Shown here: positions 22,523 to 56,473 of the stretch, one piece after another
Layout of the letters: each line of letters starts with the position of its first letter
How positions within the stretch are numbered: position 1 is the stretch's first letter
Source: Candidatus Hodarchaeota archaeon
GTDB lineage: Archaea > Asgardarchaeota > Heimdallarchaeia > Hodarchaeales > Hodarchaeaceae
Assembly: GCA_016839785.1 (NCBI GenBank)
Contig: JAEOTQ010000177.1
Span: 1-64,000, forward strand
DNA: 64,000 bases
Reading direction: 5' to 3'
The notes under the pieces: generated by a model
The model's input: only the letters and a program-made list of their open reading frames with translations
Told to the model about the DNA's origin: nothing
Database searches by the model: none
Program-made: the position numbers and the translations under genes

Positions 22523-23050
22523 CTACCGACTTTTCGTGAGCATTGTTTTTGTATACTCAACCAAACCTCCAGCCTTAAAGATTTGAAGAGCTTGATTGTC
22601 AAGTTTGGGAAAGGAAAAAACTTCTTCTTTTATCTTAATTACACCATTATCAAAATCTACCTCTATTTTTTCTTCATCTGATTCTAATAATTCCTTATTT
22701 TTTATAACATAATCTGAACACTCTGGTGAAATAACAAGAGGAAGTGCCTGATTGATAGCATTCCGAAAATAAATACGCGCGAAGGATTTAGCGATAATAC
22801 AACTAATCCCGGCTGCTTGCAAACAGGAAACGGCTTGCTCCCTGCTTGATCCAGCTCCGAAATTGTTGCCAGCAATGATCATATCTCCCCTTTCGACCTC
22901 TTCAACAAATGATTGGTCATAATCCTCCATGGCATGGCGAGCCATTTCTTCAGGGGTAAGTGGTTCGTATGTATAGCGTCCTGGGAAGATTACATCTGTG
23001 TTAATGTCATTTTCAGGAAAAATCCATATTTTATGACTTTTAAATCGCAT
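22523..23050 (-). CDS. Isopropylmalate/homoaconitate dehydratase small subunit (LeuD/HacB)
   Basis: DINTDVIFPGRY, AGNNFGAGSSREQA, AKSFARIYFRNAIN, AGGLVEY. Confidence 0.92.
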   Translation of the reverse strand: MRFKSHKIWIFPENDINTDVIFPGRYTYEPLTPEEMARHAMEDYDQSFVEEVERGDMIIAGNNFGAGSSREQAVSCLQAAGISCIIAKSFARIYFRNAINQALPLVISPECSDYVIKNKELLESDEEKIEVDFDNGVIKIKEEVFSFPKLDNQALQIFKAGGLVEYTKTMLTKSR

Positions 23051-23053
23051 TTC

Positions 23054-24319
23054 TTATACCTCCTCTGCAGTTATATACCCTGCAATTGCAGATTTCGCAA
23101 CTGTTGCTGGACTAGCTAAATAGATACCAGTATCATCTTTACTACCCATCCGACCCTTAAAATTCCTGTTTGCCGATGATATAGCTTTTTCTCCTGAGGC
23201 AATGCATCCGCCATATGCTCCCAAGCAGGGGCCACAAGCAGGAACACCAATTTGACCTCCAGCTGCTACGAGAATCTCTATTATTCCTTGTTTTGTCGCT
23301 TGGAGGAGTACTTCTTGTGAGGCGGGGTATACTAATAATCGAACATTAGGATTAATTGTTTTATCTTTTAAGATATCAGCTGCAATCTCAAGATCATCTA
23401 ATCGTCCATTCGTACATGTTCCAATTAATGCTACATCGATAGAGGTTTTTTCTAAATCTTCGATTGGAACCACATTATCGACTTTATGAGGTTTAGCTAT
23501 ACGAGGGGTTAAGTTTGACACGTCTAATTCCAAAGATTTAATATATTCTGCATCCTCATCTGCAGCTATTCTCTCATATTGAAAACCAAATTGCTTATTC
23601 CATTTATCTGTGACCTTGTCCACAGGAAATATTCCTGCTTTCGCACCCATCTCTGCTGTAAGATTGCTAAGGGTCATTCGTTCGCTGATAGAGAGCTGAC
23701 TTATAGTGGAACCGTAAAATTCAACAGAAAGATAAGTTGCTCCAGATGCTGTTACTTGTCTTATAATTTCTAAAATGATGTCTTTAGCATAAACTTGTAT
23801 TGGTAATGTACCATTCAGATTAATCTTAATAGACTCTGGTACCTTCAACCAGGTCTGTCCAATTGCCCAAACAGACGCAGTTTCGGTTCTACCAATTGGT
23901 ATACCTGCTGCACCGAAGGCACCATGGGTTGTGGTGTGACTATCACTCCCCAAGATTACGACGTTAGGTGGAACATGTCCTTTAGCAGGTAAAACTTCAT
24001 GACAAATCCCCGTACCACCTTCATAAAAATATTTAATGTTTTGCTCTTTTACAAATTGTCTAATTACTTTATGATTTTCGGCTTTCACCGCATCAGGTGG
24101 GGGAACAGCATGATCTAATGCAATAAAAATCTTTTTTGGATCCCAAACCTTTCCTTTGGATCCTACGATCTTATAAAACGTTTTAGAGATAGCTGCAGAG
24201 TTATCATGAGATAAAATCCTGTGGGGTGATACGAATACTATTTCATTTGCGGCAACCCCTTCAGTTTCTTTACCTGAAGCTTTTGCTAAAATTTTTTGGA
24301 TTAATGTTTGACCAGCCAT
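23054..24319 (-). CDS. Isopropylmalate/homoaconitate dehydratase large subunit (LeuC/HacA)
   Basis: DH, GICH, DSHTTTHGA, GTCTNGR, CGPCLG, NRNFKGRMG, YLASPA. Confidence 0.93.
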   Translation of the reverse strand: MAGQTLIQKILAKASGKETEGVAANEIVFVSPHRILSHDNSAAISKTFYKIVGSKGKVWDPKKIFIALDHAVPPPDAVKAENHKVIRQFVKEQNIKYFYEGGTGICHEVLPAKGHVPPNVVILGSDSHTTTHGAFGAAGIPIGRTETASVWAIGQTWLKVPESIKINLNGTLPIQVYAKDIILEIIRQVTASGATYLSVEFYGSTISQLSISERMTLSNLTAEMGAKAGIFPVDKVTDKWNKQFGFQYERIAADEDAEYIKSLELDVSNLTPRIAKPHKVDNVVPIEDLEKTSIDVALIGTCTNGRLDDLEIAADILKDKTINPNVRLLVYPASQEVLLQATKQGIIEILVAAGGQIGVPACGPCLGAYGGCIASGEKAISSANRNFKGRMGSKDDTGIYLASPATVAKSAIAGYITAEEV

Positions 24320-24357: not shown

Positions 24358-24651
24358 TTAAGTATTTAGGTTGAAATTTGCCACCATCTCTGAGAAAGTA
24401 TCGGCCAGTTGAGTTAATCTCAGAGTAGAATACGTCATTTGATTCATAAATGCTGTCTGTTCCTCAGTTGCAGCAGCTACCTGCACACAAGACGCACTAA
24501 ATTCTTCAGATTGTGCTGAAAATCCATGAAAAGTATCGTGAATATTTATCATATTTCCACCTATGTTTGTAACTATCCGTTCGATAAGTTCAGAAATATC
24601 TGCGGCAGTAGTTTCAACTGGAACTGTAGATTGAGCCCTAAAACAACACAA
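24358..24651 (-). pseudogene. MCP C-terminal remnant
   Basis: ETTAADIS...IGGN...[21 protein letters not shown] parallels the C-terminal arm of the adjacent MCP. Hairpin tip and N-terminus are missing. Confidence 0.75.
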
Positions 24652-24667
24652 TTCTTTACTGATTTAT

Positions 24668-25834
24668 TCAACTCAGCTTAAAATCAGCAATAATAATATT
24701 TAGAGCATCACTCAAGCGACGTAACTCCTGGGCGGCACCAGTTAGTTCATGCATACTAGCGGTTTGTTCCTCAGTTGCTGCAGCAATTTCTTCACTGGTA
24801 GCACTAAATTCTTCAGATTGCCCAGAAAAATTTTGCATAGTAGTATGTAATTTCGTCACATTCCCTCCAATATCTGTAACCATGTCATCCGTGAATGTAG
24901 ATATATCTGCAGCGTTAGTTTTGGTTTCCTCAGCAAGTCTTCTGACATTGTCTGCGACAACTGCAAATCCTTTACCATACTCTCCCGCACGAGCCGCCTC
25001 AATTGCAGCATTGAGGGCCAAAATATTCGTTTGGCTGGCAATATCTTCAATAACCTGTAACGTTGTTCCGACATTGTGTAGTGAATGATCTATCACTTCT
25101 GACATTTTCTGAACATGATCTATTGCAATGGTTGCTGATTCGGATTGATGTGATGCTGCTTGGCTTATTTGTTGTATCGCAACTGCAATTTCTCCACTCA
25201 GGACGTTAATTTCATTGAAAGTCGCTGAAAATTCTTCGGATGATGTAGATAAATTTACCGCACTACTCTTGATGGTGGTGACAATATCAATTAAGTAATT
25301 TGTCATTTTATCGTATGCTTGTTTTAAATCTCCATATTCTCTTCCATAATGCTGAATTTCTGCGATTTCAATGGTGAGATCACCTTCTGCAAGCTTATGG
25401 GTAATATGTGTAATTTCTTCTAATGGCTGTTTAACAGATTGAACAATTTGTATTAATAAAAAGATCGTTACAAAAGTACCAAGAGGAATTCCTATTACCA
25501 TTATTTGCAATGTGACATTGATCTGATTTAGAAGAAACACAATTGAAACAAGAAAAACAATGAGGGTCAATATTGAAGCAGATAAATTAAAATAGAGACT
25601 GTTCTTTAATCTTAATCTTAAGATAATCAAAAATATAATCATAACTGTTGGCATAAGAAATATGAATATTGTTTCTATAGACAAATTTATTTCACTAGTC
25701 CAGGGCAAAATAAAAGTAGTGGTAGTCCAAGTGACAAGTGTGCTTATAAGTATAAAACCAAATGCGATTATATAGGTCTGTTTCCAGCTCTTAAATTTGA
25801 ACAGAGCTTCAAACAAGCTCGACTGATTCTCCAT
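24668..25834 (-). CDS. Methyl-accepting chemotaxis protein (4 TM, HAMP, short signalling domain)
   Basis: [30 protein letters not shown] tip; HAMP PLEEIT...LAEGDLT...EYGDL; EE methylation pairs. Confidence 0.95.
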
Positions 25835-26033
25835 ACAGGATTATCCCACATGCAATTTTTGGAAGTCAGATTATATCAATCCCCTACTGTTAATAAATAG
25901 TCCTTTATCGTGAGAATTAACTTTGCAGATGATGGTTTAATCCATATAATAGTAATCTAAAGATATGAAACGCAGTTTAGCTATTGATAATTATTGAAGA
26001 TGAGAAATTATATGAAGATTAACCTGTGAAAAA

Positions 26034-26339
26034 TTATCTTTCAAGTTTAAACTTAGTAATCGCAATATTGAGATCTTCACTTAATCTACTGAGTTCTTGT
26101 GCTGCTCCTGTCATTTGATGCATTGAAGCAGTCTGTTCTTCTATCGCAGCAGCATATTGCTCGCTAGAGGCACTAAATTCCTCTGATTGGGATGCAAAGC
26201 TCCGTAATGTTTCCTGAAGAGTGACAACACTTCCACCAATATTTCTGACAATTTAATCAGTTAATGTACTGATCCCAGCAGAATTTTCTCTTGTCTCTTC
26301 CGCTAACCTTCAGACATTATCGGATACAACCGCAAAACC
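26034..26339 (-). pseudogene. Second MCP C-terminal remnant with two in-frame stops (absent from the ORF track)
   Basis: Manual translation: [102 protein letters not shown] at 26310-26312, TAA at 26253-26255. Confidence 0.88.
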
Positions 26340-26481
26340 ACATCTCTACACCTACATCCTGTTTGAATATATGATAAGGATTAGGAAAAAATCCTGTAAA
26401 ATTATATATATTATAGCGAGGAATCCCTCTAATCCTTCTTAATAAGATAATTTCCCCAAAAATTTATTTTTTAAAAAGAGA

Positions 26482-27561
26482 TTATTCATGAACTAGACTG
26501 GTTAACAAATACTCAATGAATGGACTATCCCTGTTAATTGTATCAATATCCTCTTGAATAATAAATGAGATTGTTTTTTTTTGAGCAATGCGTCCTTTAG
26601 GTAATCGAGGAATTCTGTTTACAACCGCAATAATTTTAGTATTTCCATTTACCCTTAAACCATGAAGAGTTCGTATATTTTGCGCTGTAAGATTCGATTG
26701 AATTACAAGAATATCATAGGGATCGGATTCATTCCATGTATCGATATTTTTTTGCAGACCATCGTAATCCACACAAAGATATGCTTTAATTTCTCGAGAA
26801 AGTAGAATTTTCCGCAATTTCTCAAAGGCCTGCTCACTTTGACTCAGAACTAGAAGCTTCTTATGATTCTTGTTAAGTGCAGTTGACTTTAAATCTTTTA
26901 ACAGCCGAAATAAAACATCATGAAGTTTCCCTTCTAATATTTCATCTTGTGTAACTGATGATATAACGTCTTCTAAACTAGATATTTTCCTAATTGATCG
27001 TTTCAATACCTCTGGAGTTGAATCTGCAAAAAGTTGCATTCCCCGCCAATATAATTCCTCGATTGATATAATACCTTCCATCGCATTCATGAACATATTT
27101 TGGAATTGCTCCCTTTTAATATCTTCAAGGAGATCTTTATCGGTAAGAAAACCATTTATTTCTCTGGTAAAAGAATTTGTTTCAAGGGACCAATCAAATA
27201 ATAGCTCTTGCATTGTGTTCAGATACTTTTCCGAAAATTTTGTTCCAATAAACTGCAACATAAGTTTGACAGAAAAGGATTGAAGTTTCTCTGTCCCTCC
27301 AGCCAATATAGCAGCAACAATAATTTCTCCTATCGTTTCAAAATACAGCTCATCAGTTCCGAGTTTCAGATACTCAACAGATTGATTTTCAGAGCTTAAA
27401 GATTCAGCAAAATTAGAAAGCCCTGCAACAAGACCAGCAAATAGAAGTTCCTCAATTTGATAATCCGAAAATTCTGCCTGGTAATGATAATGACATAATC
27501 CAATTTTCGATATTATCCATAGATTTTTGATTATCATTATTCTAGTCTTCTTTCGGATCAA
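26482..27561 (-). CDS. Longin-like N-terminal domain fused to a degenerate receiver (REC) domain
   Basis: IKNLWIISKIGLCHYHY...LLFAGLVAGLSNFAESL...YLKLGTDELYFETIGEIIVAAIL...FIGTKFSEKY fits the longin pattern. KKLLVLSQS...YDILVIQSNL...KIIAVV is a REC-like beta/alpha pattern. Confidence 0.65.
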   Translation of the reverse strand: MIRKKTRIMIIKNLWIISKIGLCHYHYQAEFSDYQIEELLFAGLVAGLSNFAESLSSENQSVEYLKLGTDELYFETIGEIIVAAILAGGTEKLQSFSVKLMLQFIGTKFSEKYLNTMQELLFDWSLETNSFTREINGFLTDKDLLEDIKREQFQNMFMNAMEGIISIEELYWRGMQLFADSTPEVLKRSIRKISSLEDVISSVTQDEILEGKLHDVLFRLLKDLKSTALNKNHKKLLVLSQSEQAFEKLRKILLSREIKAYLCVDYDGLQKNIDTWNESDPYDILVIQSNLTAQNIRTLHGLRVNGNTKIIAVVNRIPRLPKGRIAQKKTISFIIQEDIDTINRDSPFIEYLLTSLVHE

Positions 27562-27576
27562 TTAGTGACAGGAAAC

Positions 27577-28773
27577 CTACTCTTTTTTCTTGTAAATACG
27601 ATTTTTTGTGTCAATGATTTCAAATTTTTGCTTGATCGATTGAGGTAGAACCTCACATCGTCCTAGTACTAGATATCCCTTCGATTTCAATGCAGCATGG
27701 AACTGCTTGAAAAAGATTTCACTTTGAGCACGTGAAAAATATATCAATACATTTCGACAGAGAATGAGGTCAAAATCTCGTCCAGGGGGTGGATTTCTTA
27801 GGTCATGCTGTTTAAATGTAACCATGTTTCTTATGCGAGGTAAAAGTTGATAAAGATCAGAATCATTTACATGTTGAAAATATTTAAGAATTTTTAATTT
27901 ATCTACTTCCTCTAAAGACTTATCTGAATATACACCTTTCATAGCTTGTTGAAGTAACCCTTGATTGATGTCTGTGGCAAGAATATAGGGATTTTTAAAC
28001 GTATTTTTCATTTTCAATTCATTTAAGAGAATGGCGATACTATAGGGTTCAGGTCCTACCGCACATCCCGCACTCCAGATTCGAATAGGATTTTTTTTCC
28101 CCAATGATATTTGAGGAATTACATCCCGTTCTAGGGATAAAAATAATTCTTTATCACGAAAGAAACGTGTTACGTTGATGGAGAAATTATCCATTAGGAG
28201 TTTGAATTCATCAGATGATGTTTGCAGTAAATTATGATATCCTTTGTATGTATTCTTACTTACACGCTTCATTCGAGCATGTAACCGTCGAAGAAAATGA
28301 TTTAGCTTATACGCTTGATAATTAATCTTTTTAGCGGATAAAAAATCAAAAATCAACGACAAATTCTTATTATCTGCTGGTAGATCTAGATTTGACTCAA
28401 ATTCTAGTGGGAGAATAACGATTTTTTTCTTCTTTTTCTTAGGTTTTATAGGTGCTTCCGTCACGTAATCCTTCAGAGTTTTTTTTTGTCGAATGAGAGG
28501 AACAAACGATCTATCCTCTTCGTGATAGGCTCGTCCCTTTTCTAGCCATTGAAAAACAGATTCAGAAGTCTGAGGATCAGATTTTAAGCAGTTTAACAAT
28601 TCTTTGAAATTCCGATAACCCATCTTCCTTGCTTGATATCGTAATCGTAGTAGAATTCTTTTCTCATCTTTACGAGTAAATTCGAATTTTTTTTGACGGA
28701 GAAACTCAATTATTTCATACTTACCTTGATCTGATTCCAACTGGATAGAAAATTTATCGTAGTTAATTTGCAT
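27577..28773 (-). CDS. cheR: Chemotaxis methyltransferase CheR with duplicated N-terminal helical domain
   Basis: INVTRFFRD, RIWSAGCAVGPEPYSIA, ATDIN, FDLILCRNVLIYF, GYLVLG. Confidence 0.95.
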   Translation of the reverse strand: MQINYDKFSIQLESDQGKYEIIEFLRQKKFEFTRKDEKRILLRLRYQARKMGYRNFKELLNCLKSDPQTSESVFQWLEKGRAYHEEDRSFVPLIRQKKTLKDYVTEAPIKPKKKKKKIVILPLEFESNLDLPADNKNLSLIFDFLSAKKINYQAYKLNHFLRRLHARMKRVSKNTYKGYHNLLQTSSDEFKLLMDNFSINVTRFFRDKELFLSLERDVIPQISLGKKNPIRIWSAGCAVGPEPYSIAILLNELKMKNTFKNPYILATDINQGLLQQAMKGVYSDKSLEEVDKLKILKYFQHVNDSDLYQLLPRIRNMVTFKQHDLRNPPPGRDFDLILCRNVLIYFSRAQSEIFFKQFHAALKSKGYLVLGRCEVLPQSIKQKFEIIDTKNRIYKKKE

Positions 28774-28807: not shown

Positions 28808-29362
28808 TTACAAGGTTACTGAAGAACTACCCGTTGGAGTAACAATCAATTCATAATCCTTCACAATAAATTTTACATTCATACCCCTGCCACCACCTGT
28901 AAATTCTTTCACTAGAGGTATTTTATGTAAATTTAGATTATTCTTTGTTGCTTTGATATTTTCCTTACCAATATCTAGAATATCAGATGATTTCTCAAAC
29001 ATCTTTGCCCCACCAACTAACTTAGCTTCTAAGGTATGGGAATGAAAACCAAGGCGTTGTAACTTCTCAATCATACGAGGAATCGCTTTATCTGAATATT
29101 TTGCTGGTAATTCTTTCTTACTTTGATTTGTTGTTCTTTTTTTATCATGTGATTCTGGGAGCATTATATGACCCATCACTGCGCAACGACTCTGACTTAA
29201 TTGGTGTTTTGGATAGATGACAAGTCCAACACAAGACCCAAGTGCTGGAATCTTTAGTTGATCTGTAGAATGTCCAATGACAATTTGGCTTATATCCACA
29301 TAGATCGTAGTGAGGGGTGTACGATCTCGTGGTTCTCCAGATAAAGGTTGATTATTAGTCAT
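28808..29362 (-). CDS. cheD: Chemoreceptor glutamine deamidase CheD
   Basis: LGSCVGL, GHIMLP, KYSD.AI, AKLVGGAKMF, IGKEN, TGGGRG. Confidence 0.95.
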   Translation of the reverse strand: MTNNQPLSGEPRDRTPLTTIYVDISQIVIGHSTDQLKIPALGSCVGLVIYPKHQLSQSRCAVMGHIMLPESHDKKRTTNQSKKELPAKYSDKAIPRMIEKLQRLGFHSHTLEAKLVGGAKMFEKSSDILDIGKENIKATKNNLNLHKIPLVKEFTGGGRGMNVKFIVKDYELIVTPTGSSSVTL

Positions 29363-29398: not shown

Positions 29399-30052
29399 TT
29401 AATACATCTCTTCTGAAAACAAAGACTTCATGAAATCATCAAATGTGTCAGATTGTGGAACAATGGCTAGATCTACTGCTATATTTCGTTCAGAAGTAAA
29501 AATGTCACATTCAACCACAAGAACAGTTGAAGGACCTTGATTCAATTCCTTCAATTCATGCTCATCAAGTGAGTCAATAGAGCCAATTCTTAAAACTGGA
29601 GGGGATGGAAACGAATTGGCTTTTAAAAAGTAATTCAAGGCCTCTAGATATTTCAAAAGTAGAATAGAGCCAGTTTCCTTTATTAGTGACAGATAAAGAG
29701 GTGATAATTCAGAAAGCTTTGTTTGAACAAGATCAGGAGCTGAAGTGGTCATTAAATTGATGATTTTAGCTACACTTAATTTGTCAAAAAAAACTAGGAG
29801 TGAATATTTCAAATCACTCACAGTTTTTAAGGAAATAATTGCTAGTTCTTGATCTGTTGGCATCTTTACCAAAGTGTGTATCGATTTTACACTATCAAGA
29901 GCGACATTCGGGATACTCATATAGGTCGATCGGTTTAGAAACTGAGTTAAAGCTGTAGCTGCCTGTCCTGCACCAATATTACCTACCTCTTGTAATGCAT
30001 CTAGGTGGAAATCCGACAATTTCTCAAAATTATACTTTTCTTCATTATGCAT
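29399..30052 (-). CDS. cheC: CheY-P phosphatase CheC
   Basis: DALQEVGNIGAGQAATAL...MSIPNV; second repeat SLIKETGSIL has N->S. Confidence 0.92.
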   Translation of the reverse strand: MHNEEKYNFEKLSDFHLDALQEVGNIGAGQAATALTQFLNRSTYMSIPNVALDSVKSIHTLVKMPTDQELAIISLKTVSDLKYSLLVFFDKLSVAKIINLMTTSAPDLVQTKLSELSPLYLSLIKETGSILLLKYLEALNYFLKANSFPSPPVLRIGSIDSLDEHELKELNQGPSTVLVVECDIFTSERNIAVDLAIVPQSDTFDDFMKSLFSEEMY

Positions 30053-31940
30053 GTATAGAAGTCTCCAAAAAATTCATGGGGTCAAGTATTAACACAACTT
30101 GTCCTCCTTCTAAGATAGTCGCACCAGAAAAGGTTCCCAATTGGCTAAGAAAGTTGTTAATCGGTTTAATGACAACATCTCTTTCTCCTAGTAATTCTTT
30201 CACTAAAAATCCCAAAGTACGAGCCCCTTTTCGCCATAGGACGACGTTTTCTTTTTCTGTAATATGATTACTCCTAATTTTATTTGTAATTGAAGTGGAA
30301 CTCGGAGAAGACGAGTTATAATTTAGAAAACTCGTTAAATCGATTAGAGGAACAGGAGTATTATCAACAATAATCGATTTGGTGTTTGATTCCGAGTCCT
30401 GAAGAATTTTATCTATAGGAACAGTCAGAATCTGGTCAATATTAGCCATTGGAATGGCTAACCGCTGTTCCTGAATACTTAGCATTAAAACCTTAGTTAT
30501 CGCTACTGAAATTGGAATGATTAATCGAATAGAGGTAAATTTTCCTGGTTCAGATTCCACCTCGATATTTCCACCAATTTCTTCTACTATTTCTTTGACG
30601 ATGTTGAGCCCCACGCCTCGACCCGATATCTCAGTTGTTTTATCCGTCGTTGATAAATTTTGAGAGAAAAGTAGAGCATGTAACTCTTCATGAGTTAAGT
30701 CAGTTCCTGAAGGGATTAGTCCTAAATTTTTTGCTTTCTTACTGATTTTCTTATAATCTAGCCCACATCCATCATCTTTAATCTCGATTACAATGTCTGA
30801 CCGCTCATGATTAATATTAAGTCTGATAGTACCTCGTTCGTCTTTTTTCTTCTTAATCCGATCTGCAGGTAATTCTATTCCGTGATCTACAGCATTTCTG
30901 AGCAAGTGTGTAAGTGGATTTGTTAATTGCTCAATAACAGACCGATCAACACCGATGTGCTTCCCAGAAATAATCAAATCTACCTTTTTGTCACTTTTTT
31001 GACCCAAATCACGGACCATTCTAGGAAAACGTGTTAAAATTGTCTCTAGAGGTACTAATCTCATTTTAATGACCAAATCCTGTATGTTGGAGATGGTTCT
31101 TTCATAACTTGCTAAATTTTCTTTAAATGATCTAGAGTATGCTTGTTGTTCTCCTATCTCACGAATAAACTGACCAGATATCACTAATTCACCTAAAAGT
31201 TGAATTATACGGTCTAAATCTTTGAGTCCAACTCTTACATTTAGAGGTTCTTGGCTATCATCCATAACACTTGTCTTTTCAACTGTGCTCACCGAATCTA
31301 AAAGACGAGATATATTTGCCGAGATTACATCTTGAGTCTCTTCTATAATCTGTGTTATTGCCTCTTCATCCTCTTGAGTTGTCAATTCCACAAACAACTC
31401 TTTGAAAGTTATTCCTGCTTGAATTTCCTCCATAGGTGGAACAGTGCGTTCAACTGTCGCTTTTTTCTGTAGTTTCTTCAGAAGAACTAAAGTGCGTGCG
31501 CTTATAACCTTGCAATCTGGACTAAATAGTACCTTAATACCAAATTTATTTCCAAGATTGACAATGAAATCATCAAATGAAGCTAATTGCTGAGTAAGCT
31601 GATCAAATCTTAGCAACTCGGGTGTTTTCCCACCACGTAGTGAATTTGCAAGGCTTTGCAACTCATCACTGTATTGGAATAGAAGTGATACGACCTTTTC
31701 AACCCCTCCACTGTCAATAGTTGATAATAAATTTTCCATGCTATGAGTCATGGAACTAAGTTGTGGATACCCAGACAGAGAAAATAGCCCTTTAAGACTG
31801 TGTAAAGTATGAAGAATTCTATCAGATTTCTTCTTTGGATTTTTTTCTAATTCTAATAATCCAGTATTCAGCTCTTCAACACGTTCGGTTAGTTCCAATA
31901 ACATAACATCTTGGAACTCTTCTGTTTCAAAATCTTCCAT
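30045..31940 (-). CDS. cheA: Chemotaxis histidine kinase CheA (P1-P2-P3-P4-P5)
   Basis: HSLKG (HPt), VRV..LD..LGELVI, PLTHLLRNAVDHGIE, DDGCG, SGRGVGL, C-terminal CheW-like domain. Confidence 0.96.
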   Translation of the reverse strand: MEDFETEEFQDVMLLELTERVEELNTGLLELEKNPKKKSDRILHTLHSLKGLFSLSGYPQLSSMTHSMENLLSTIDSGGVEKVVSLLFQYSDELQSLANSLRGGKTPELLRFDQLTQQLASFDDFIVNLGNKFGIKVLFSPDCKVISARTLVLLKKLQKKATVERTVPPMEEIQAGITFKELFVELTTQEDEEAITQIIEETQDVISANISRLLDSVSTVEKTSVMDDSQEPLNVRVGLKDLDRIIQLLGELVISGQFIREIGEQQAYSRSFKENLASYERTISNIQDLVIKMRLVPLETILTRFPRMVRDLGQKSDKKVDLIISGKHIGVDRSVIEQLTNPLTHLLRNAVDHGIELPADRIKKKKDERGTIRLNINHERSDIVIEIKDDGCGLDYKKISKKAKNLGLIPSGTDLTHEELHALLFSQNLSTTDKTTEISGRGVGLNIVKEIVEEIGGNIEVESEPGKFTSIRLIIPISVAITKVLMLSIQEQRLAIPMANIDQILTVPIDKILQDSESNTKSIIVDNTPVPLIDLTSFLNYNSSSPSSTSITNKIRSNHITEKENVVLWRKGARTLGFLVKELLGERDVVIKPINNFLSQLGTFSGATILEGGQVVLILDPMNFLETSIHA

Positions 31941-32000: not shown

Positions 32001-32360
32001 TTATAGCAGTACGTTTTCAATCGCTTGAACAAGCTGATCGACTTTGAACGGTTTAATAACAAAATCCTTTGCCCCAATTTTCAGTGCTTGTCGTACAAGG
32101 GGTTCATGCCCCAATGCTGTAACCACTACAAAATTGGCTTTAGGATCTATTGCCATAATCTCTTTCATTGCTAAAAGACCGTTCATTTTTGGCATAACGA
32201 TATCCATCGTCACGACATCAGGTTTGAAATTCTTATACTGTTCGATCGCTTCAGAACCTGTCTCAGCCTCTGCGACAACTTCGTGGCCGTGTTTCTTCAA
32301 GATCTTACTTATCATTAGACGTAGATATTTTGAATCGTCTACAATTAGGACGTTAGCCAT
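32001..32360 (-). CDS. cheY: Chemotaxis response regulator CheY
   Basis: VLIVDD, TMDIVMPKMNG, VTA, FVIKPF; stand-alone receiver in a che operon. Confidence 0.95.
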   Translation of the reverse strand: MANVLIVDDSKYLRLMISKILKKHGHEVVAEAETGSEAIEQYKNFKPDVVTMDIVMPKMNGLLAMKEIMAIDPKANFVVVTALGHEPLVRQALKIGAKDFVIKPFKVDQLVQAIENVLL

Positions 32361-32363
32361 GTT

Positions 32364-34616
32364 TTACTCCTCTTCTTCATTTTTTTCTTGTTTATTACTC
32401 GTTATTAGGGGATTTAACCCCTTTTTCGTTATGATTTTTGTTAGAAACTCATTTTCAATGATATTCACTGAAGATGAGCTATTATCATCAATAAATTGGT
32501 TTTGACAACATTTAATACCCTCTAAAAATAAATTATTCTTTACCCAAGGTATTAAATCGTCCTTAAATGTTGTTACCACGGCTTCCAAATTATCTACTGG
32601 AATCAGGTAAATTTTCTCCTCAATTACTATCGAGAAGAAATCAATTTCGTTATCAAAATTTATTTGTTCACTTGTGACCAATATAAGCGATGTTAAATCA
32701 AGTATTGGATATTCATTATCATTTATGACGCCTTTTCCAAGAATTGGATGAGCTTCAGTTGCAGATTTAGTAATCTCTACTGATGTACTAAATACACCCT
32801 GTACAAAAGCAACATCAATAGCTAATTTTACGTCACTTAATTGGAATACAAGATAATTTAATCGATCTTTATCAAGATGCGTTGAGAGATAAAGATCTCG
32901 TTCCTTGTTCTGGTCTTGAAGTCGTGTTAAAGAGTGTTTGTCTTCAGGAAGTAATTTAGAAACCATATCCTCAGCATTTTGCATATTTAATTCTGTTCTG
33001 ATAATTGAATAGGTTTCTTCTATTAATCGATTTGGTTTTACGATTATACCAAGTTTTCCGTTATAAGAAAAAAAGCCAGAAATTATTTGGGACAGCATTT
33101 TCGTGTAAAAACTTGTTTCAGGTTGGAATATAGCGAGCTGTTCTATTGAGGTTTGACCTAAAATATTCTGTACAATAAAAGTGGCTTCTAAACCACTTTT
33201 TTGATCATGGAGTACTACTCCAGCTAATTTTCCAGAAGAATTGTGATCAAATTTCTGTCCTTGAACTAGAAAATTGAAATCGACCAAGGGACTTAATACT
33301 TGATGAGAAGTAATCCCTAGGATAGCGTCATGACCATAATCGCTTTGGAAAAATGCCTCCTGCTTTACAATTTGTAATACGTATTCAGAATCGATGAAAT
33401 AAAGAATCTCTTCATTTTGAATTAAAAGTCCCTCTTGGGACGAACTTTTTACCTTCTCTGAATCAGTTTTATCAGGATTTTGAAAGGAAATAATCGGTGA
33501 ATTGAACTCTTCAAGACTTCCTGAAGTGAAATACTTTGTAAAGATATAACTTATATTTAGAATTAAAATGATATTTCCAGATTGCTCAAGAATAACACCC
33601 TTGAATATATAATCAGCATTACCCTCATTATTCAGTGTGATAGTTTGCCTGATGTCTGTTTTCTGAATCTCAATGATTCGAGGAATTTCATCCATCATAA
33701 GAGCAAGTTTTTCATTTCCATACTCTACAATTAACGCGCGTGTCTGTTCAAAGTCTTTCTCGTTAATACTTGAATTTGAATTACCTAAAAGTAATTTCTC
33801 CAAGTTAATAGCATTTATTATCTCACCTTGATAATTAATAGCCCCAACAATAATATCAGAGGTATTCGGAATCTCGGTTAACCGTGAGATGGTAAATATT
33901 CTAGACACATTTTCATTTGGGATTAGAATTGATAGGTCCTGGACAGAGATAACTGTTCCTGTATACTTAACTTCTTTTGGGGGGCGGATTAATCTATCCG
34001 CTCTCCATCCTGAAATGGGTGCTGTTCTCTGAATTTGGTGTTGTAGATTAATATTGTACCCTTCTAGAGTATCGGTGTTATCATTGAGAGCGCTTGAAAC
34101 TTGGAGAGAGGAAAGCGACTTCTGAAATGAAATATTAGAGTCTAACAAGATCTGATTGAAAATCATGTTAATTTTAAGTTGTACAACAATATTCTCCTCC
34201 CACATAAAAGCGGAATTAAAAAATGAATTAGCGATGGCTTCACCATCAGTAAACAAATTTCTTGTCAAAGTTTCATCTGTTTTACCTATTATACCAATGA
34301 TACTTTCAACCTTCAAAAAAATTGTCTGTTCCTCGTAATCGACCACTAGAAAGTTCCGACTTTTTGTATCAGAATGTTTTTTGTCTTTTTCAATTCCATA
34401 GAAGTAGGTTCCCAAATCTATTGCTGCTAATACTTTCCCTTGAAAAGCTGTTGATCCCAAAAAATAAGGAATGGTGTTTGCAACTGGATTTATGAACGGA
34501 TTCTGTATGATTTGAAATATCAAGGAGTTATCAATAACAAAATGCTTACCACGCAAAGTAAAAAGGACAAAACTACTTTTAACATTTCTTCCCTTTGTAG
34601 TACTTGCTATGGTCAT
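32364..34616 (-). CDS. Protein with four tandem CheW-like domains
   Basis: Four repeats of the CheW pattern: FLGSTAFQGKVLAAIDL; IVGAINYQGEIINAINL; ILGITSHQVLSPLVDF; ILGKGVINDNEYPILDL. Confidence 0.85.
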   Translation of the reverse strand: MTIASTTKGRNVKSSFVLFTLRGKHFVIDNSLIFQIIQNPFINPVANTIPYFLGSTAFQGKVLAAIDLGTYFYGIEKDKKHSDTKSRNFLVVDYEEQTIFLKVESIIGIIGKTDETLTRNLFTDGEAIANSFFNSAFMWEENIVVQLKINMIFNQILLDSNISFQKSLSSLQVSSALNDNTDTLEGYNINLQHQIQRTAPISGWRADRLIRPPKEVKYTGTVISVQDLSILIPNENVSRIFTISRLTEIPNTSDIIVGAINYQGEIINAINLEKLLLGNSNSSINEKDFEQTRALIVEYGNEKLALMMDEIPRIIEIQKTDIRQTITLNNEGNADYIFKGVILEQSGNIILILNISYIFTKYFTSGSLEEFNSPIISFQNPDKTDSEKVKSSSQEGLLIQNEEILYFIDSEYVLQIVKQEAFFQSDYGHDAILGITSHQVLSPLVDFNFLVQGQKFDHNSSGKLAGVVLHDQKSGLEATFIVQNILGQTSIEQLAIFQPETSFYTKMLSQIISGFFSYNGKLGIIVKPNRLIEETYSIIRTELNMQNAEDMVSKLLPEDKHSLTRLQDQNKERDLYLSTHLDKDRLNYLVFQLSDVKLAIDVAFVQGVFSTSVEITKSATEAHPILGKGVINDNEYPILDLTSLILVTSEQINFDNEIDFFSIVIEEKIYLIPVDNLEAVVTTFKDDLIPWVKNNLFLEGIKCCQNQFIDDNSSSSVNIIENEFLTKIITKKGLNPLITSNKQEKNEEEE

Positions 34617-34736: not shown

Positions 34737-35309
34737 TTAAGAACCTTCATCTGGCAAAGTATACTGACTAAAATCGAAATCCATGTCATCTGTATCTTCT
34801 TGTACTTGTAATTTTTCAGAAGTTTTAAGAACGGTAAAATAATTTCCTATTACCTTCTCAGGATCAACAATAAATACATCTGATTGATCATCTAATATTC
34901 CAATTTGAGTAATCAATGACTCATCAACGAGCTCTTTCCCCTTGAATTTGGATTGATCTGCATCTGTAAAACTTCTGATCTTTAATATTTGATTTACTTG
35001 ATCTACTAATATACCAATGTCTTGCCCCTTAATTGTGACTACAAGGACATTATAATTTCCATTTTTCTTCTCAGCTTGTCTATCGAACTGAGCTCCCCAT
35101 AGAAGTACTGAAAGATCGAATACACTTAATATATAACCTCTAAGTTCTGTTATGCCAGAGAGAACTTGTGAAGTCTTAGGGAGCTTCAATATCTTGTCAG
35201 TTTGAAAAACTTCTTTTATATAATCTATTTTGATTCCGTATACATCCTTTACGATCTGGAAAACAAGATATTTTTCTGGAGTATGAAGTGAAGATTTCAT
35301 AAATATCAT
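34737..35309 (-). CDS. cheW: Chemotaxis adaptor CheW
   Basis: YLVFQI..YGIKI..IKEV...LP..GITELRGYILSVFDL, IGILVDQV; acidic tail. Confidence 0.93.
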   Translation of the reverse strand: MIFMKSSLHTPEKYLVFQIVKDVYGIKIDYIKEVFQTDKILKLPKTSQVLSGITELRGYILSVFDLSVLLWGAQFDRQAEKKNGNYNVLVVTIKGQDIGILVDQVNQILKIRSFTDADQSKFKGKELVDESLITQIGILDDQSDVFIVDPEKVIGNYFTVLKTSEKLQVQEDTDDMDFDFSQYTLPDEGS

Positions 35310-36025
35310 TCCTTTTTATTTGCATTAAGTATCTGTCTGAAATTTTTCATTACTTTATTGAACTTCGAGTTAATTGGTTTTTGTATCTCTTTTGTAGTTC
35401 CTGAGTACTTTGAGCTAAGATAAGTAGAATCTGATTGCTCCATGGAATCCAAACTTCTTTCTAACTCAAAATCCTCAATATGTGTTGTAGTAGTCTCCAT
35501 AACTATATTGTCAACAATGCTCCCTAACTGAGGAAAAATCGAGGATTTCTTTTCCTCCAAAGCTTGATCTGTAAAATCGAAGCTAATTTCTTCCACAAAT
35601 CCAGATTCATATGAAGGAAGGCTGACAAGCATGAAAATAGTCTCGAATATTCTTGATGAAAGATCATCAATAGACTCAAGGAAAACGCGATTCGTTAAAT
35701 ATGATAGTGGGAAATTTATAACTGTTAATAGGCATACAAGATCATTTTGAGTTCGGACAAATATGCGTGAACCTTCTTTTACTCCAATATCGTTTAATTC
35801 CATATTATTTCCAATCATTTCCCCGAATTGTACAATGGCAGCCATTAAACCTGCAATCAGTGCTGGATCCTCCCCTGGAGAATTAGAAATCCTTTTATAC
35901 ACTCTAGAGAATACGGGAAGACCACTTCGCTTATTTAATAAAAGAATTTCTCGAACATTGAGGTGGATACCAGCAATATCTTCTTGATTCTTATCTCTAT
36001 CATCTATTTCCCGCTGGACGATAAT
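35306..36025 (-). CDS. Longin-like protein in the che operon; probable non-canonical ATT/ATC start
   Basis: The frame stays open 41 codons upstream of the GTG at 35902, giving VREILLLNKRSGLPVFSRVY...DPALIAGLMAAIVQFGEMIG...IFVRTQNDLVCLLTV. GAGGTG lies at 36032-36037 just ahead of ATT (36025) / ATC (36022). ATGA overlap with cheW. Confidence 0.7.
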   Translation of the reverse strand: MIVQREIDDRDKNQEDIAGIHLNVREILLLNKRSGLPVFSRVYKRISNSPGEDPALIAGLMAAIVQFGEMIGNNMELNDIGVKEGSRIFVRTQNDLVCLLTVINFPLSYLTNRVFLESIDDLSSRIFETIFMLVSLPSYESGFVEEISFDFTDQALEEKKSSIFPQLGSIVDNIVMETTTTHIEDFELERSLDSMEQSDSTYLSSKYSGTTKEIQKPINSKFNKVMKNFRQILNANKKE

Positions 36026-36328: not shown

Positions 36329-37429
36329 TCATCCATAGCGGTTGTAACAATAATCAACTATAATTTCAGGAATTTTATGTAAAGGTGCTACACGATCAAC
36401 TAAGTTGCCCTCAATAACTTTCTTTGGCATCCCATAAATAACACAGGTGGATTCATGTTCAGCAATGATATTCCCTTTAACGGCCTTTATGCTCTTTGCA
36501 CCATCAAATCCATCCTTCCCCATACCTGTAAGGACAATCCCTACAACGTTTTCGCCGTACACCTTGGCTGCAGAAGTAAAAGTTACATCAGCTGAGGGTA
36601 TCAGAAAGTTAATCTTTGGTCCTTTGTACATATTGAACCTTTTTCCCTCTTGAATCGCACAATGTTTTCCTCCTGGAGCTATATATACCTTATTAGGTCG
36701 AACTAACTCTCCGTCATCAGGAATAACTATATTTAAATGAGGATTTTCATTTTTTAATCCCTCTACCCAACGATTTACCATTTCTTCAACCATATGTTGA
36801 ATTATTACAATAGGAGGAAACTTTGAGGGAATTTTGGGGAGAATAAGACGAATTGCACGAGTTCCACCAGTCGAGGATGCTATTACAAATAGTCTATCTT
36901 GAAATTTCTTTAGCCCTTTCTTTGGTTTTCTGGCTGCAATAGGTTCTTCTTTCAAGTGGTACTCAAGATCAAACCCTTTTATCGCTTTTACCAAGTTCAT
37001 ATGAGAAAGAATGCTAATTTTACTCATCAATTCCTTTTCAAAGCGTTTTTTATCAAACGGGTCATCGCTTGGTTTTTTGACAAATTCTACATAGCCAGAA
37101 TTTATTGCTGCCATTCCTAGATTTGAAAGGGATTTGTCAACCTCCTTCTTGCTTAAAGAAGAGACAATTACCACAGGCATAGGATCACGATCCATAATAT
37201 GGCTAATTGTTTCGAATCCGTCCATTTCTGGGGGGGGACCCATCATAATGTCCATAGTGATAATATCTGGTTTAAACTTGGGAATTTCCATTTTAGTCAA
37301 AGCAATCTCGCCAGTAGCTGCCTTTCCAACTACTTTGATTTTTCTATTACCCCTTGTTAGGATATTTGAAATGGTTTGCCTATATAATGCTGAATCGTCG
37401 ACTATCAGTACTCTAATTTCATCCTTCAT
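36329..37429 (-). CDS. cheB: Chemotaxis methylesterase/response regulator CheB
   Basis: Receiver VLIVDDS/TMDIMM/VKKP; catalytic SSTGG, QHM, LTGMGKDG; YGMP. Confidence 0.96.
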   Translation of the reverse strand: MKDEIRVLIVDDSALYRQTISNILTRGNRKIKVVGKAATGEIALTKMEIPKFKPDIITMDIMMGPPPEMDGFETISHIMDRDPMPVVIVSSLSKKEVDKSLSNLGMAAINSGYVEFVKKPSDDPFDKKRFEKELMSKISILSHMNLVKAIKGFDLEYHLKEEPIAARKPKKGLKKFQDRLFVIASSTGGTRAIRLILPKIPSKFPPIVIIQHMVEEMVNRWVEGLKNENPHLNIVIPDDGELVRPNKVYIAPGGKHCAIQEGKRFNMYKGPKINFLIPSADVTFTSAAKVYGENVVGIVLTGMGKDGFDGAKSIKAVKGNIIAEHESTCVIYGMPKKVIEGNLVDRVAPLHKIPEIIVDYCYNRYG

Positions 37430-38383: not shown

Positions 38384-38552
38384 TAGAAAATAGGTTCTTA
38401 AAGTATTAATTGAAGTTTTACCATTTTATTGTTCATATAGGCAAGTAGATAAAACTTTTCAAGTTCATAATGGGGGAGGAAAGATTTTACTGTGAAGGCG
38501 CTCTTCCGCGAAAAATGTTTTTAACACATTAAACTGCGAAAAAGTGGAAAAG

Positions 38553-39806
38553 ATGGGATATACAGTTATTGAAAAAATCATTGCTGATCATTCCTCCGAG
38601 GAAGTGGCCCCAGAAAAAATTGTCTGGTTAAATATTGATGTAAGATCCGCACGTGATTTTGGTGGTGCAAATGTAGTCAAAAATCTTGAGAAAAACTATC
38701 CAGGGGAATCTCATGTTGCTGACCCAACGAAGACGTTCTTTACATTCGATTGTGTCGTTCCAGCTAACAATTTAGGATATGCTGAAAATCAACAAGTAGC
38801 CAGGGTATTTGCTCGAAAGAATCTACCCCGAAATAATTTGTACGATGTAAACGCAGGTATTGGTTCTCACATAATGATTGAAAAAGGTATTGCGGTTCCC
38901 AATAGCACCGTTGTTGGAACTGATTCGCATTTAAATATTCTTGGAGCAATAGGAGCATTCGGACAAGGGATGGGTGATCAGGATATTGCCTTTACATTTA
39001 AAACAGGGAAAACTTGGTTCGAGGTTCCTTATACAATGCGAGTTACCATTGATGGTACTCCAGCTAAGAATTCTTCAGCTAAAGATGTTACTTTAGGGGT
39101 GTTAGAGAAATTAGGTTCGAAAGGCGCATTAGGTAAATCAGTAGAATTTTACGGAGCTACTATCGATGCTCTCGATTTAGCAGGACGTATTACTCTTGCG
39201 AGTCAAGTCACTGAAATGGGCGGAATAATTGGATTAATTACTCCCAATAGCTCAATCATAGAATACTGTAAGGAAAGAAGTGGTCGTGATTTTCCGATTC
39301 ACAAAGCTGATGACGATGTTGATTATGTAGAGGATATACATTATGATTTTGAAGGGATTGAGCCACGAATTGCTTTACCCCCGAATCCTGCCAATGTGAG
39401 ACCAGTCGCGGAGGTTACAGGTATCAAAGTGGATTCTGTCGTCATTGCTTCCTGCACAAATGGCCGATACGAAGATTTTGCTATCGCAGCCAAGATTCTC
39501 AAGGGTAAAAAAGTTCATCAAGATGTGATGATGAAAGTTGTTCCTGCAACCCAAGAAGTTTACGGTCAATTATTACAAAATGGGCTTGTGGATCTATTCT
39601 ATCAATCTGGTGCTATTATAAGTAATCCCGGATGCGCAAGTTGTGCAAGTGGGCAAATTGGGATGACTGGTGACGGGGAAGTGCAGGTTACTACAGGAAA
39701 TCGAAATTTTACAGGAAAGCAAGGTAAAGGAGATACTTATCTCGCATCCCCAGCTACTGCAGCAGCTTGTGCCCTTGCAGGAGAAATCGTTGTCCCGGAA
39801 CTATAA
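38553..39806 (+). CDS. Second LeuC/HacA-type aconitase-family large subunit
   Basis: GTDSH..ILGA, ASCTNGR, CASCASG, NRNFTGKQG, YLASPA. ATG at 38553. Confidence 0.9.
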   Translation: MGYTVIEKIIADHSSEEVAPEKIVWLNIDVRSARDFGGANVVKNLEKNYPGESHVADPTKTFFTFDCVVPANNLGYAENQQVARVFARKNLPRNNLYDVNAGIGSHIMIEKGIAVPNSTVVGTDSHLNILGAIGAFGQGMGDQDIAFTFKTGKTWFEVPYTMRVTIDGTPAKNSSAKDVTLGVLEKLGSKGALGKSVEFYGATIDALDLAGRITLASQVTEMGGIIGLITPNSSIIEYCKERSGRDFPIHKADDDVDYVEDIHYDFEGIEPRIALPPNPANVRPVAEVTGIKVDSVVIASCTNGRYEDFAIAAKILKGKKVHQDVMMKVVPATQEVYGQLLQNGLVDLFYQSGAIISNPGCASCASGQIGMTGDGEVQVTTGNRNFTGKQGKGDTYLASPATAAACALAGEIVVPEL

Positions 39807-39826
39807 TTCAATAGGAGAAGAACATT

Positions 39827-40360
39827 ATGAAAAAATCTACAACTCTAACTGGAAAAGCAATTGTGATAAAGGATAGTCAAGGTACAGGTATTGATGACAT
39901 AGATACAGATATGATTTTCCACAACAAACACTTACATATCACCGATATAAATGAAATGGGTCAATATGCTTTTGGAAATTTGGAGGGATGGAAAGAGTTT
40001 TCCTCATTGGTGACAGAGAATTCTATTTTAATTGTTGGTAAGAATTTTGGTGCAGGATCTTCACGACAACAAGCTGTTGACTGTTTCAAAGCTTTAGAAG
40101 TTATGTTAATTATAGGCGAATCCTTTGGAGCTATTTATAAGCGAAATGCCATCAATTCCGGAATGCCATTATTAACAGCTCCTGAAATTATGAAAACTGC
40201 AATTGAAACTGGAGATCTACTAAAAATCGATTTAACCACTGGGAAAATTTCATCTGAAACAAAAAAGTTACAATTCAGTAATATTACACCACTATCACAG
40301 GTACAGCTTGATATTTATTATGCTGGAAATCTATTTGAGTACGGAAAAAGTCTGGAGTAG
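39827..40360 (+). CDS. Second LeuD/HacB-type small subunit
   Basis: DIDTDMI, VGKNFGAGSSRQQA, SFGAIYKRNAINSG. Confidence 0.9.
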   Translation: MKKSTTLTGKAIVIKDSQGTGIDDIDTDMIFHNKHLHITDINEMGQYAFGNLEGWKEFSSLVTENSILIVGKNFGAGSSRQQAVDCFKALEVMLIIGESFGAIYKRNAINSGMPLLTAPEIMKTAIETGDLLKIDLTTGKISSETKKLQFSNITPLSQVQLDIYYAGNLFEYGKSLE

Positions 40361-55834: not shown

Positions 55835-56473
55835 ATGAGTATCTTTGAGGTAAAAGACGATTTGTATAAGATCTGTCTTGTCGGAGATGGAGGAGTCGGT
55901 AAAACGGCTATTGTTGAAAGGTTTTTAGGAAAAGGTTTCGCTTCTACTTATAATTTGACCATTGGAACCAATATATGTACTCATACCGTGGATGTGGATG
56001 GTACAAAAGTCAAATTTCAAATTTGGGATTTAGCAGGACAACAACGGTTCGAATTCGTCCGTTCCATGTTTTATCGGGGATCTCATGCTATTGTTATGGT
56101 TTTTGATGTGACCAATCCAAATTCCCTTTCGAATTTACATGAATGGAAAAATGAAATTCTACAAAATCTGGACCATAGACACCATGCCATCCCCATTGTG
56201 CTATTAGGTAATAAAAGTGATCTGCAACAAAAATTACTTATCGATCAGGACGCAATATCGAACTTCAAAGATGAATTACAGATGGAGTTCCACGCAGATT
56301 CAACCGCCTTTATGTACACAAGTGCTCGCTCAGGAATGAATATCGAGGAGTCATTTGAAGTACTAGGTCTATTGCTTTTAAAGAAGAAGAATCCACAATC
56401 CTATATTGATAAAACTTCAGGGAAATTTAAAATTCCAACGAATCTTCATTCCATTGGACCCTCGAATGCATAA
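55835..56473 (+). CDS. Rab-like small GTPase
   Basis: G1 GDGGVGKT, G2 TIG, G3 WDLAGQ, RF..VRSMFYRG, G4 NKSD, G5 SAR. No C-terminal Cys prenylation motif. Confidence 0.95.
   Translation: MSIFEVKDDLYKICLVGDGGVGKTAIVERFLGKGFASTYNLTIGTNICTHTVDVDGTKVKFQIWDLAGQQRFEFVRSMFYRGSHAIVMVFDVTNPNSLSNLHEWKNEILQNLDHRHHAIPIVLLGNKSDLQQKLLIDQDAISNFKDELQMEFHADSTAFMYTSARSGMNIEESFEVLGLLLLKKKNPQSYIDKTSGKFKIPTNLHSIGPSNA

Follow-up and report, generated by a model that had tools for sequence, protein, structure and literature searches.

A predicted longin and pseudo-receiver protein encoded behind cheR in a Hodarchaeales archaeon

Asgard genomes carry sets of che genes together with many longin/roadblock proteins and small GTPases, and the wiring of either system is largely unknown. 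Regulators of the latter kind are rarely matched to their partners because they are seldom in operons with them (PMC10933270). A 64,000-nucleotide stretch of DNA from a Candidatus Hodarchaeota archaeon (assembly GCA_016839785.1, contig JAEOTQ010000177.1, positions 1 to 64,000; the whole stretch is referred to as the window) raises the question of whether the two systems meet in one protein. A gene on the minus strand behind cheR, here termed the target gene, had been described in an original prediction as coding for a longin domain joined to a pseudo-receiver domain. The target is best explained as a soluble three-domain signalling adaptor of Hodarchaeales-type Asgard archaea, and a link to chemotaxis was given a probability of about 0.5. 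The gene provides a specific case in which a connection of eukaryote-type GTPase-regulator folds with two-component or chemosensory signalling can be tested.

The target gene and its conservation

The target gene and its parts are as follows:
26482..27537, minus strand: target gene, 351 codons plus stop; the listing of open reading frames (ORFs) begins it at TTG 27561
27139..27537, minus strand: longin-type domain, residues 1-133, in the order beta-beta-alpha-beta-beta-beta-alpha-alpha, with the highest conservation in the protein
26872..27138, minus strand: central all-helical domain, residues 134-222, with helices at 134-153, 159-170, 175-195 and 199-221
26485..26871, minus strand: pseudo-receiver domain, residues 223-351, predicted CheY-like fold without phospho-acceptor chemistry; basic, isoelectric point (pI) 9.3
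26698..26700, minus strand: codon of Gln280, the equivalent of the phospho-accepting Asp, at the end of beta3
26572..26619, minus strand: Pro/Arg-rich loop of 16 residues, 307-322, at the site of receiver alpha4

The ORF at 26482-27561 on the minus strand exists as originally described and encodes 359 amino acids (aa) when read from the TTG, but its start was probably misplaced. Almost all of the sequences aligned (33 homologues and the window protein) have MIIKNLW as their first residues, which makes the ATG at 27537 the most likely true start. Residues are numbered in the resulting 351-aa version. The strings quoted in the original prediction, NLWIISKIGLCHYHY, LFAGLVAGLSNFAESL, ELYFETIGEIIVAAIL, FIGTKFSEKY, LVLSQS and DILVIQ, were all present in the translation.

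A word-indexed search of 5.8 billion proteins returned 50 homologues at E <= 4e-70, mostly of 339-368 aa; where names were given, the entries were labelled as hypothetical proteins from Hodarchaeales, Hodarchaeota, Heimdallarchaeota or Promethearchaeota. The family is small, since an exhaustive HMMER scan over 1.84 billion cluster representatives yielded no more than 41 clusters at E <= 1e-3. The proportion of nonsynonymous differences (pN) was 0.11, 0.21 and 0.27 against the orthologues in loci L001, L002 and L012, respectively, while the synonymous proportion (pS) was saturated at about 0.75-0.76. Judged from these comparisons, the target is under purifying selection. That the ORF might not be a gene was ruled out by the 50 homologues and by the pN values of 0.11-0.27 against saturated pS. 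By thirds of the protein pN was 0.065, 0.078 and 0.183, the N-terminal third being the most constrained. The maximal Kyte-Doolittle mean over 19 residues was 1.43, and no hydrophobic run was long enough for a membrane span.

Family searches gave no assignment. The window protein matched no Pfam family at E <= 1 and no true NCBIfam family, the sole match to the latter being a chance one to chorismate lyase (E 0.031). Against the PDB sequences, a profile search matched nothing except a designed armadillo-repeat protein (E 0.052). The sequencing runs listed for the organism comprised four DNA runs from two studies and no RNA.

Predicted three-domain architecture

Folds were assigned by DSSP on two AlphaFold2 models, by Foldseek against the PDB and by VIA-align. 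Model 1 was built from 34 sequences and had a mean pLDDT of 77.7 and a pTM of 0.43, and model 2 had a pLDDT of 82.9. DSSP gave the order beta-beta-alpha-beta-beta-beta-alpha for residues 3-109, helices for residues 120-221 and a five-strand alpha/beta domain for residues 227-349. The E-values of the whole-model Foldseek search were weak, with a best value of 4.4e-4, and the list was dominated by longin proteins at probability 1.00, among them Mon1/Ccz1, AP sigma subunits, Sec22b, Fuzzy-Inturned, BLOC-3, a TRAPP core chain and a Prometheoarchaeum roadblock protein. At the other end of the model the matches were to cobalamin-binding and CheY-like domains.

The predicted N-terminal domain consists of a five-stranded antiparallel sheet in the order beta-beta-alpha-beta-beta-beta-alpha-alpha and lacks an N-terminal helix; sheet order and the missing helix are the features used for the longin topology in PMC10933270. 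Longin, Fuz_longin_1, SRX and Robl_LC7 were absent among the Pfam families listed (25 of 26) for the 34 family members. Comparison of the target in the ESM Atlas, which serves as a lead only, gave scores of 0.76-0.78, with Response_reg in two of the four clusters listed, one of which also carried Robl_LC7.

Both fold claims of the original prediction survived structure prediction and the Foldseek search. The N-terminal longin domain was upheld by the DSSP topology and by the Foldseek and VIA-align matches, and the C-terminal domain by DSSP and VIA-align as a CheY-like (beta/alpha)5 domain, each as a predicted fold; the C-terminal limits first proposed (about 26482-26862) agree with residues 223-351. 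The description as a two-domain protein was correct for the two ends but had overlooked a helical domain of about 90-100 residues between them and the Pro/Arg-rich loop that replaces alpha4. On the models, the order longin, helical domain, pseudo-receiver is very probably right.

A receiver fold without receiver chemistry

In VIA-align, receiver domains ranked first for the C-terminal domain, with root-mean-square deviations (rmsd) of 2.4-3.3 Å over 103-117 residues. Receivers are marked by an acidic pair after beta1, a phospho-accepting Asp after beta3, a Thr or Ser after beta4 and a Lys after beta5. The equivalent positions were assigned from the strand positions in the model and the alignment of the 34 members. 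Position 232, after beta1, was Cys in 23 members and Ser in 11, and position 233 was Arg (11), Lys (9), Glu (5) or Asp (4). Position 280 was Asp in 16 members, Glu in five, Gln in four, His in three and other residues in the rest, while Asp275 at the start of beta3 was kept in 31, as in receiver domains. Positions 306-307 were V/N, and position 328 at the end of beta5, where receivers have their Lys, was Gln in 32 of the 34. The proposed loss of the acidic pair and of the phospho-Asp was thus borne out for the window protein (Cys/Ser232 with residue 233, and Gln280), and the Lys is replaced as well, by Gln328. In an hhalign comparison of the C-terminal profile with eight receiver sequences of the same genome, which was itself not significant (E 0.11, probability 0.5%), the lost sites lined up with the DD and Asp of CheY. 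Response_reg was absent among the Pfam families listed at E <= 1 for the 34 members. On the predicted fold, 'pseudo-receiver' is the right term for this domain.

The loop at residues 307-322 was the most conserved part of the domain. Residues I309, P313, G315 and R316 were invariant, P310 was kept in 33 and R311 in 30 of the 34 members, the pI was 12, and neither model showed secondary structure. The alpha4-beta5 face is a common partner-binding surface of receivers, and the loop may be a docking site.

The longin and helical parts were acidic (pI 4.6-4.7; residues 111-222, pI 4.6). The middle domain has five helices in the AlphaFold2 models, and structural comparison gave no convincing relative for it. 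Sub-threshold Pfam matches to CCTL2_WNK occurred in 16 of the 34 members, and one member narrowly passed the cut-off (27.2 against 27 bits). The matches covered 35 residues on two different helices (residues about 119-153 and about 187-238; about 26824-27183 in the window). The matches are probably spurious and due to chance helix similarity.

Distant relatives with a genuine receiver

Homologous proteins are designated by P numbers, loci by L numbers and the 24 genomes of the order by G numbers, G000 being the genome of the window. P0064, P0066 and P0076 are three distant relatives of 516-526 aa (E 7e-26, 2e-22 and 3e-10, respectively) and carry the longin and helical module, residues 9 to about 250 of the target, in their C-terminal halves. 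Their N terminus is a genuine Pfam Response_reg domain (E 4e-18 to 1e-20), in which the DD, D, T and K receiver residues could be read from the sequence. As we read the sequences, these proteins stop once they have passed the counterpart of the pseudo-receiver's beta1-alpha1-beta2. Real response regulators therefore occur with the longin-helical module at their output end. The two halves of P0064 were found only apart and never fused in 400 genomes of the phylum, and a word-indexed search with P0064 residues 240-516 returned P0064 and P0066 only. A 521-aa ORF of the window's own genome (contig C26) had been considered as a further longin fusion and was discarded, as its sequence reads as a REC-PAS-histidine kinase.

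The che operon and the position of the target

The genes upstream and downstream of the target are the following:
36329-37429, minus strand: cheB (Pfam)
35309..36025, minus strand: F18, without annotation; Asgard-specific, about 240 aa; between cheW and cheB
34737-35309, minus strand: cheW (Pfam)
32364-34616, minus strand: triple-CheW protein (cheW3), 750 aa (Pfam), between cheW and cheY
32001-32360, minus strand: cheY (Pfam)
30045-31940, minus strand: cheA (Pfam)
29399-30052, minus strand: cheC (Pfam)
28808-29362, minus strand: cheD (Pfam)
27577..28773, minus strand: cheR (Pfam CheR E 6.8e-51, and CheR_N), immediately upstream of the target
24668..25834, minus strand: methyl-accepting chemotaxis protein (MCP; MCPsignal E 8.4e-33, and HAMP), downstream of the target

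The operon runs cheB-F18-cheW-cheW3-cheY-cheA-cheC-cheD-cheR on the minus strand with the target as its last protein-coding member, and an identical che gene order was found in L001, L002, L025, L026 and L027. Only 39 nt separate the cheR stop from the target ATG. The placement directly downstream of cheR was therefore correct for this genome, where the upstream gene is CheR by Pfam, but did not hold generally: the orthologue adjoined che genes in three of the 13 genomes that have one. In these three closest relatives, G000, G005 (L002) and G006 (L001), the target lies between cheR and MCP genes.

Full-length orthologues (E < 1e-160) were present in 13 of the 24 genomes of the order and were found only in Hodarchaeales-type genomes. 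A che cluster was called from CheW-domain matches that included CheA-sized ORFs, and 14 of the 24 genomes were positive:
Orthologue and che cluster: 10 genomes (G000, G005, G006, G010, G012, G016-G020)
Orthologue without a detected che cluster: three genomes (G001, G003, G021; 91, 87 and 80% complete)
Che cluster without orthologue: four genomes (G004, G014, G022, G023)
Neither: seven genomes

Thus a che cluster was found in 10 of the 13 genomes with the orthologue, against four of the 11 without it. As the genomes are close kin and incomplete, these counts are not independent, and the co-occurrence of target and che genes is an association rather than a test. A segment of G015, a che-negative genome of 96% completeness, matched residues 290-351 of the family only and contained an internal TAA (C13:90594-90779); it may be a decayed copy of the target.

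F18, a second conserved member of the operon

The gene designated F18 was flagged as a second conserved, unannotated member of the Hodarchaeales-type che operon. Its family comprised 51 homologues with a mean column identity of 56%. F18 lay beside cheW in nine clusters of eight genomes and one gene further off in G017, and all 11 genomes in which it was found at E < 1e-40 were che-positive. The genomes G012 and G016 have F18 directly ahead of the target orthologue and in the same orientation, about 74 nt and about 57 nt away; in the che cluster of G016 only 366 nt remain between cheB and cheW, the usual site of F18, and no F18 is present there. F18 would thus have moved beside the target, which in the sister group lies in the operon, a pattern expected of functional partners. 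This evidence for a che link is stronger than the target's own adjacency to che genes.

F18 is itself probably longin/roadblock-like, to judge from its sequence pattern. Fuz_longin_1 was matched below threshold in six of 30 members (best E 0.028), and in the ESM Atlas the orthologue P0126 scored 0.91-0.92 with archaeal clusters and 0.87 with a Roadblock/Fuz_longin_1 cluster, which again serves as a lead only. A profile-profile comparison of target and F18 aligned only a 21-column helix at a probability of 1.5%, so that homology was not demonstrable. Complex prediction from the two alignments gave a score of 0.05 against a mark of 0.32, a value that weighs neither for nor against binding.

In the window the start of F18 is anomalous. 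A TAA stop stands at the codon aligned with Gln3 of the closest full-length homologue, P0092, and the open frame begins without ATG, GTG or TTG. If translation began at GTG 35902, as in the ORF listing and the database copy P0093 (198 aa), the protein would lose its first two strands as predicted. The anomaly could stem from an assembly error, a nonsense change or an unusual start codon.

Output machinery of the genome

In archaea, CheF and ArlCDE link CheY-P to the archaellum (PMC13705601). The Pfam models CheF-arch (PF04283) and Arch_flagellin were therefore of interest here; neither was matched in any of six che-positive genomes, namely the window's own (84.5% complete) and five related ones (93-99% complete), while control genomes were positive. 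Arch_fla_DE had no Pfam match in the own genome, and CheF-arch had none in the target protein. These results are no more than suggestive of a CheF-less clade with a missing-adaptor problem, because divergent CheF or archaellin genes could escape the Pfam models. A type IV filament cluster was present elsewhere in the genome:
Contig C207:1-8866 (locus L024): two T2SSF platform proteins and a T2SSE ATPase whose C terminus resembles PilB3

The che system might have this cluster as its target machine. The cluster also contains ORFs with weak DUF7289 and DUF7261 matches, which may be pilins. The genome yielded 58 matches to the Ras family and 10 to Roadblock/LC7 (Robl_LC7).

Proposed role of the target

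We propose that the target is not a phosphorylated response regulator but serves the chemosensory pathway, from within or alongside it, as an adaptor or output part. In this genome it would be co-transcribed with cheR. The longin domain would form a dimeric platform, as is usual for longin and roadblock domains, either with a second copy or with F18. A downstream partner would be held on this platform, and the many Ras-superfamily GTPases of the genome are the most plausible source of it. A small GTPase is the default guess because GTPase binding is the usual role of longin/roadblock platforms (PMC10933270). The pseudo-receiver, through its alpha4-beta5 face, would contact CheY-P, CheA or CheC/CheD, or else the target machine, by protein-protein binding. 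The receiver-fused relatives, the pairing of F18 and target in two genomes and the missing Pfam CheF lend added support to a role as an adaptor. The docking on CheA-P2, CheC or CheY that the original prediction put forward would otherwise depend on gene context, which is weaker than a place right behind cheR would suggest. The GTPase step is the tentative part of this scheme and taken by itself is unlikely. More speculative still is the proposal that the Hodarchaeales che pathway ends at longin platforms of F18 and target that control a Ras-superfamily GTPase, in place of a CheF-archaellum switch; we would hold the odds to be clearly against it. If it were true, prokaryotic chemosensing would be wired directly to a eukaryote-style GTPase module for polarity or membrane remodelling, and the relatives with a genuine receiver would represent a form of this switch that is driven by phosphorylation.

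Several observations weigh against an adaptor in the che pathway. The orthologue adjoins che genes in only the three genomes named above. A GNAT acetyltransferase is the same-strand upstream neighbour in L003-L006 and L012, and the remaining conserved neighbours look like housekeeping genes; they include peptidase-like ORFs and a long helicase-like ORF, the Pfam scan of these neighbours covering GNAT only. G001, G003 and G021 carry the target with no che cluster detected, and the target is missing from G004 and G014 although their che clusters include F18, so the target is neither required for che systems nor restricted to them. The genomes compared are closely related and incomplete. All folds are predictions, Response_reg, Longin and Robl_LC7 are all missing among the Pfam families listed for the 34 members, and the hhalign alignment of the C-terminal domain to receivers falls short of significance. 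The longin-like reading of F18 rests on a sequence pattern, weak Pfam matches and an Atlas lead, none of them decisive. The absence of CheF and archaellin likewise depends on Pfam models that divergent Asgard genes could evade; Asgard archaellum genes are scattered, and some genomes have CheF homologues (PMC13705601). No small-GTPase gene adjoins the target, the nearest in the window lying at 55868-56365.

Much of this would also fit a general longin-platform regulator or scaffold, serving a small GTPase or a process akin to membrane trafficking, for which the che position is incidental. Ten of the 13 orthologues lie outside che clusters, beside GNAT, peptidase and helicase-like ORFs, three genomes hold the target without a detectable che cluster, and longin/roadblock proteins and GTPases abound in Asgard genomes (10 Robl_LC7 and 58 Ras matches in the present one), such regulators being generally encoded outside the operons of their GTPases (PMC10933270). 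The target nevertheless adjoins che-linked genes in two arrangements, after cheR and after F18; its module is fused to a genuine receiver in the relatives, and it keeps a receiver fold itself. A general scaffold is for these reasons possible but somewhat doubtful. A relationship to the SRP receptor alpha subunit, which combines an SRX longin domain, a helical N domain and a GTPase-like domain, with nucleotide binding lost in the target, was suggested by the best whole-model Foldseek row (7obq_y, E 4.4e-4, 423 columns) and by the same order of fold types. That alignment had a TM score of only 0.25 and an rmsd of 21.8 Å, however, the P-loop G....GK[ST] occurred in none of the 34 members, and the C-terminal domain superposes on receivers and not on GTPases, so that this relationship is the least probable of those considered.

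The C-terminal half admits two other readings, which bear on whether it derives from a receiver and whether it has ceased to function as one. The helical and alpha/beta domains could form a cobalamin-binding or SCHIC-type cofactor sensor like CarH, AerR or AppA. The top Foldseek rows for residues 110-351 were the SCHIC domain of AppA (4heh_A, E 3.9e-3) and AerR (7te2, E 6.5e-3), and CarH and other B12-binding domains appeared in the whole-model search, the cobalamin-type matches having E-values of 3.9e-3 to 1.4e-2. The rmsd of these alignments was 13-16 Å with TM scores of 0.25-0.35, whereas VIA-align, as given above, put receivers first at 2.4-3.3 Å over 103-117 residues. Proteins of the cobalamin type have a four-helix bundle packed on a Rossmann-like domain and bind the ligand through a DxHxxG motif. 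This motif was found in one of the 34 members and there outside the alpha/beta domain (residues 223-351); a cofactor sensor is accordingly very improbable. Alternatively, part of the family might still be a phosphorylatable response regulator of which the window copy degenerated recently. At position 280, 16 of the 34 members have Asp and five have Glu, and 31 keep Asp275, but the acidic pair and the beta5 Lys are missing throughout the family, including the members with Asp280, and no member had Response_reg among the Pfam families listed. Residual phosphorylation seems, if anything, even less probable than cofactor binding. The reading of the target as a soluble adaptor with a pseudo-receiver is accordingly preferred.

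Comparison with known systems

Published Asgard che inventories list CheA, B, C, D, R, W, Y and MCPs only, in the parts available. The literature searched included PMC5847659, PMC10933270, PMC13705601, PMC13053709, PMC9834061 and bioRxiv 10.1101/385732; in it no longin-helical-pseudo-receiver protein, REC-longin relative or F18 of che operons was described, supplementary Asgard tables of che and type IV filament genes lying outside the search. Pseudo-receivers, Asgard longin/roadblock proteins and the receiver-Roadblock regulators of Thaumarchaeota are already known.

The receiver-Roadblock response regulators of Thaumarchaeota (REC-NitrOD3; PMC5847659) also hold a receiver fold and a roadblock/longin/profilin-like fold in one archaeal polypeptide, and the REC-longin relatives P0064, P0066 and P0076 are their nearest analogue. 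The target differs from REC-NitrOD3 in having the longin domain first, the receiver fold last and a helical domain between them, in the loss of the phospho-acceptor residues, and in an N-terminal domain of predicted longin topology without an N-terminal helix and without Robl_LC7 among the families listed. The nearest functional precedent may be the Frz system of Myxococcus xanthus, which acts on the GTPase MglA, its roadblock GTPase-activating protein MglB and the receiver-domain protein RomR with RomX (PMC9481161, PMC10329633, PMC6785124, PMC13408092), so that a chemosensory output passes through receiver-domain proteins and a roadblock GTPase regulator and not to a flagellar switch. The parallel would lie in the position of target and F18 in or beside the che operon, the missing Pfam CheF and the abundance of GTPases in the clade. 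It is one of analogy: no sequence relationship was found, and the Myxococcus parts are separate proteins, whereas they would be fused in the target.

Eukaryotic longin-domain GEF subunits and longin proteins (Fuzzy/CPLANE, Mon1-Ccz1, BLOC-3, TRAPP core chains, Sec22b, VAMP7) had 7-17% identity to the target. None of them has a receiver-like domain, and the target has no Pfam longin match. The N-terminal domain of KaiA (1m2e), HP1043 (2hqr/2pln) and the N-terminal domain of lysine decarboxylase, all among the structural matches of the target, use a CheY-like fold for protein interaction without Asp phosphorylation; their partners and architectures are unrelated, and the Pro/Arg-rich loop in place of alpha4 is particular to the target family. 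Like CheF, the target is a candidate for the position of a lineage-specific, che-linked carrier of the signal to the motility machine. Unlike CheF, it has no CheF-arch match, and its predicted folds match longin and receiver domains.

If the che link is true, it bears on how the archaea closest to eukaryotes by descent controlled directional behaviour. Should the link be false, the target family is still a well-conserved, unannotated, Asgard-specific architecture worth defining as a family.

Other features of the locus and its relatives

In four of 12 orthologue loci (L004, L006, L007 and L012, e.g. L012:5147-5800), a further conserved, Pfam-negative ORF lay about 2-3 kb upstream of the orthologue; it codes for about 217-223 aa, in a pattern that resembles longin/roadblock sequences. 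The versions of the triple-CheW protein in relatives reached about 1150 aa, with additional CheW domains.

The gap between target and MCP in the window is 647 nt (25835-26481) and contains no listed ORF of at least 60 aa. At this site L001 and L002 hold two additional genes, for a DUF835 protein and a PAS-DUF835-HTH (helix-turn-helix) protein. Beyond the MCP gene lies one further short ORF:
24358-24651, minus strand: MCP-like fragment, 97 aa, Pfam-negative, resembling the C-terminal end of the adjoining MCP

It may be the remnant of a second MCP gene. The che operon is flanked by pairs of large and small aconitase-family subunits (Aconitase and Aconitase_C), at 22523-24319 on the minus strand and at 38544-40360 on the plus strand.

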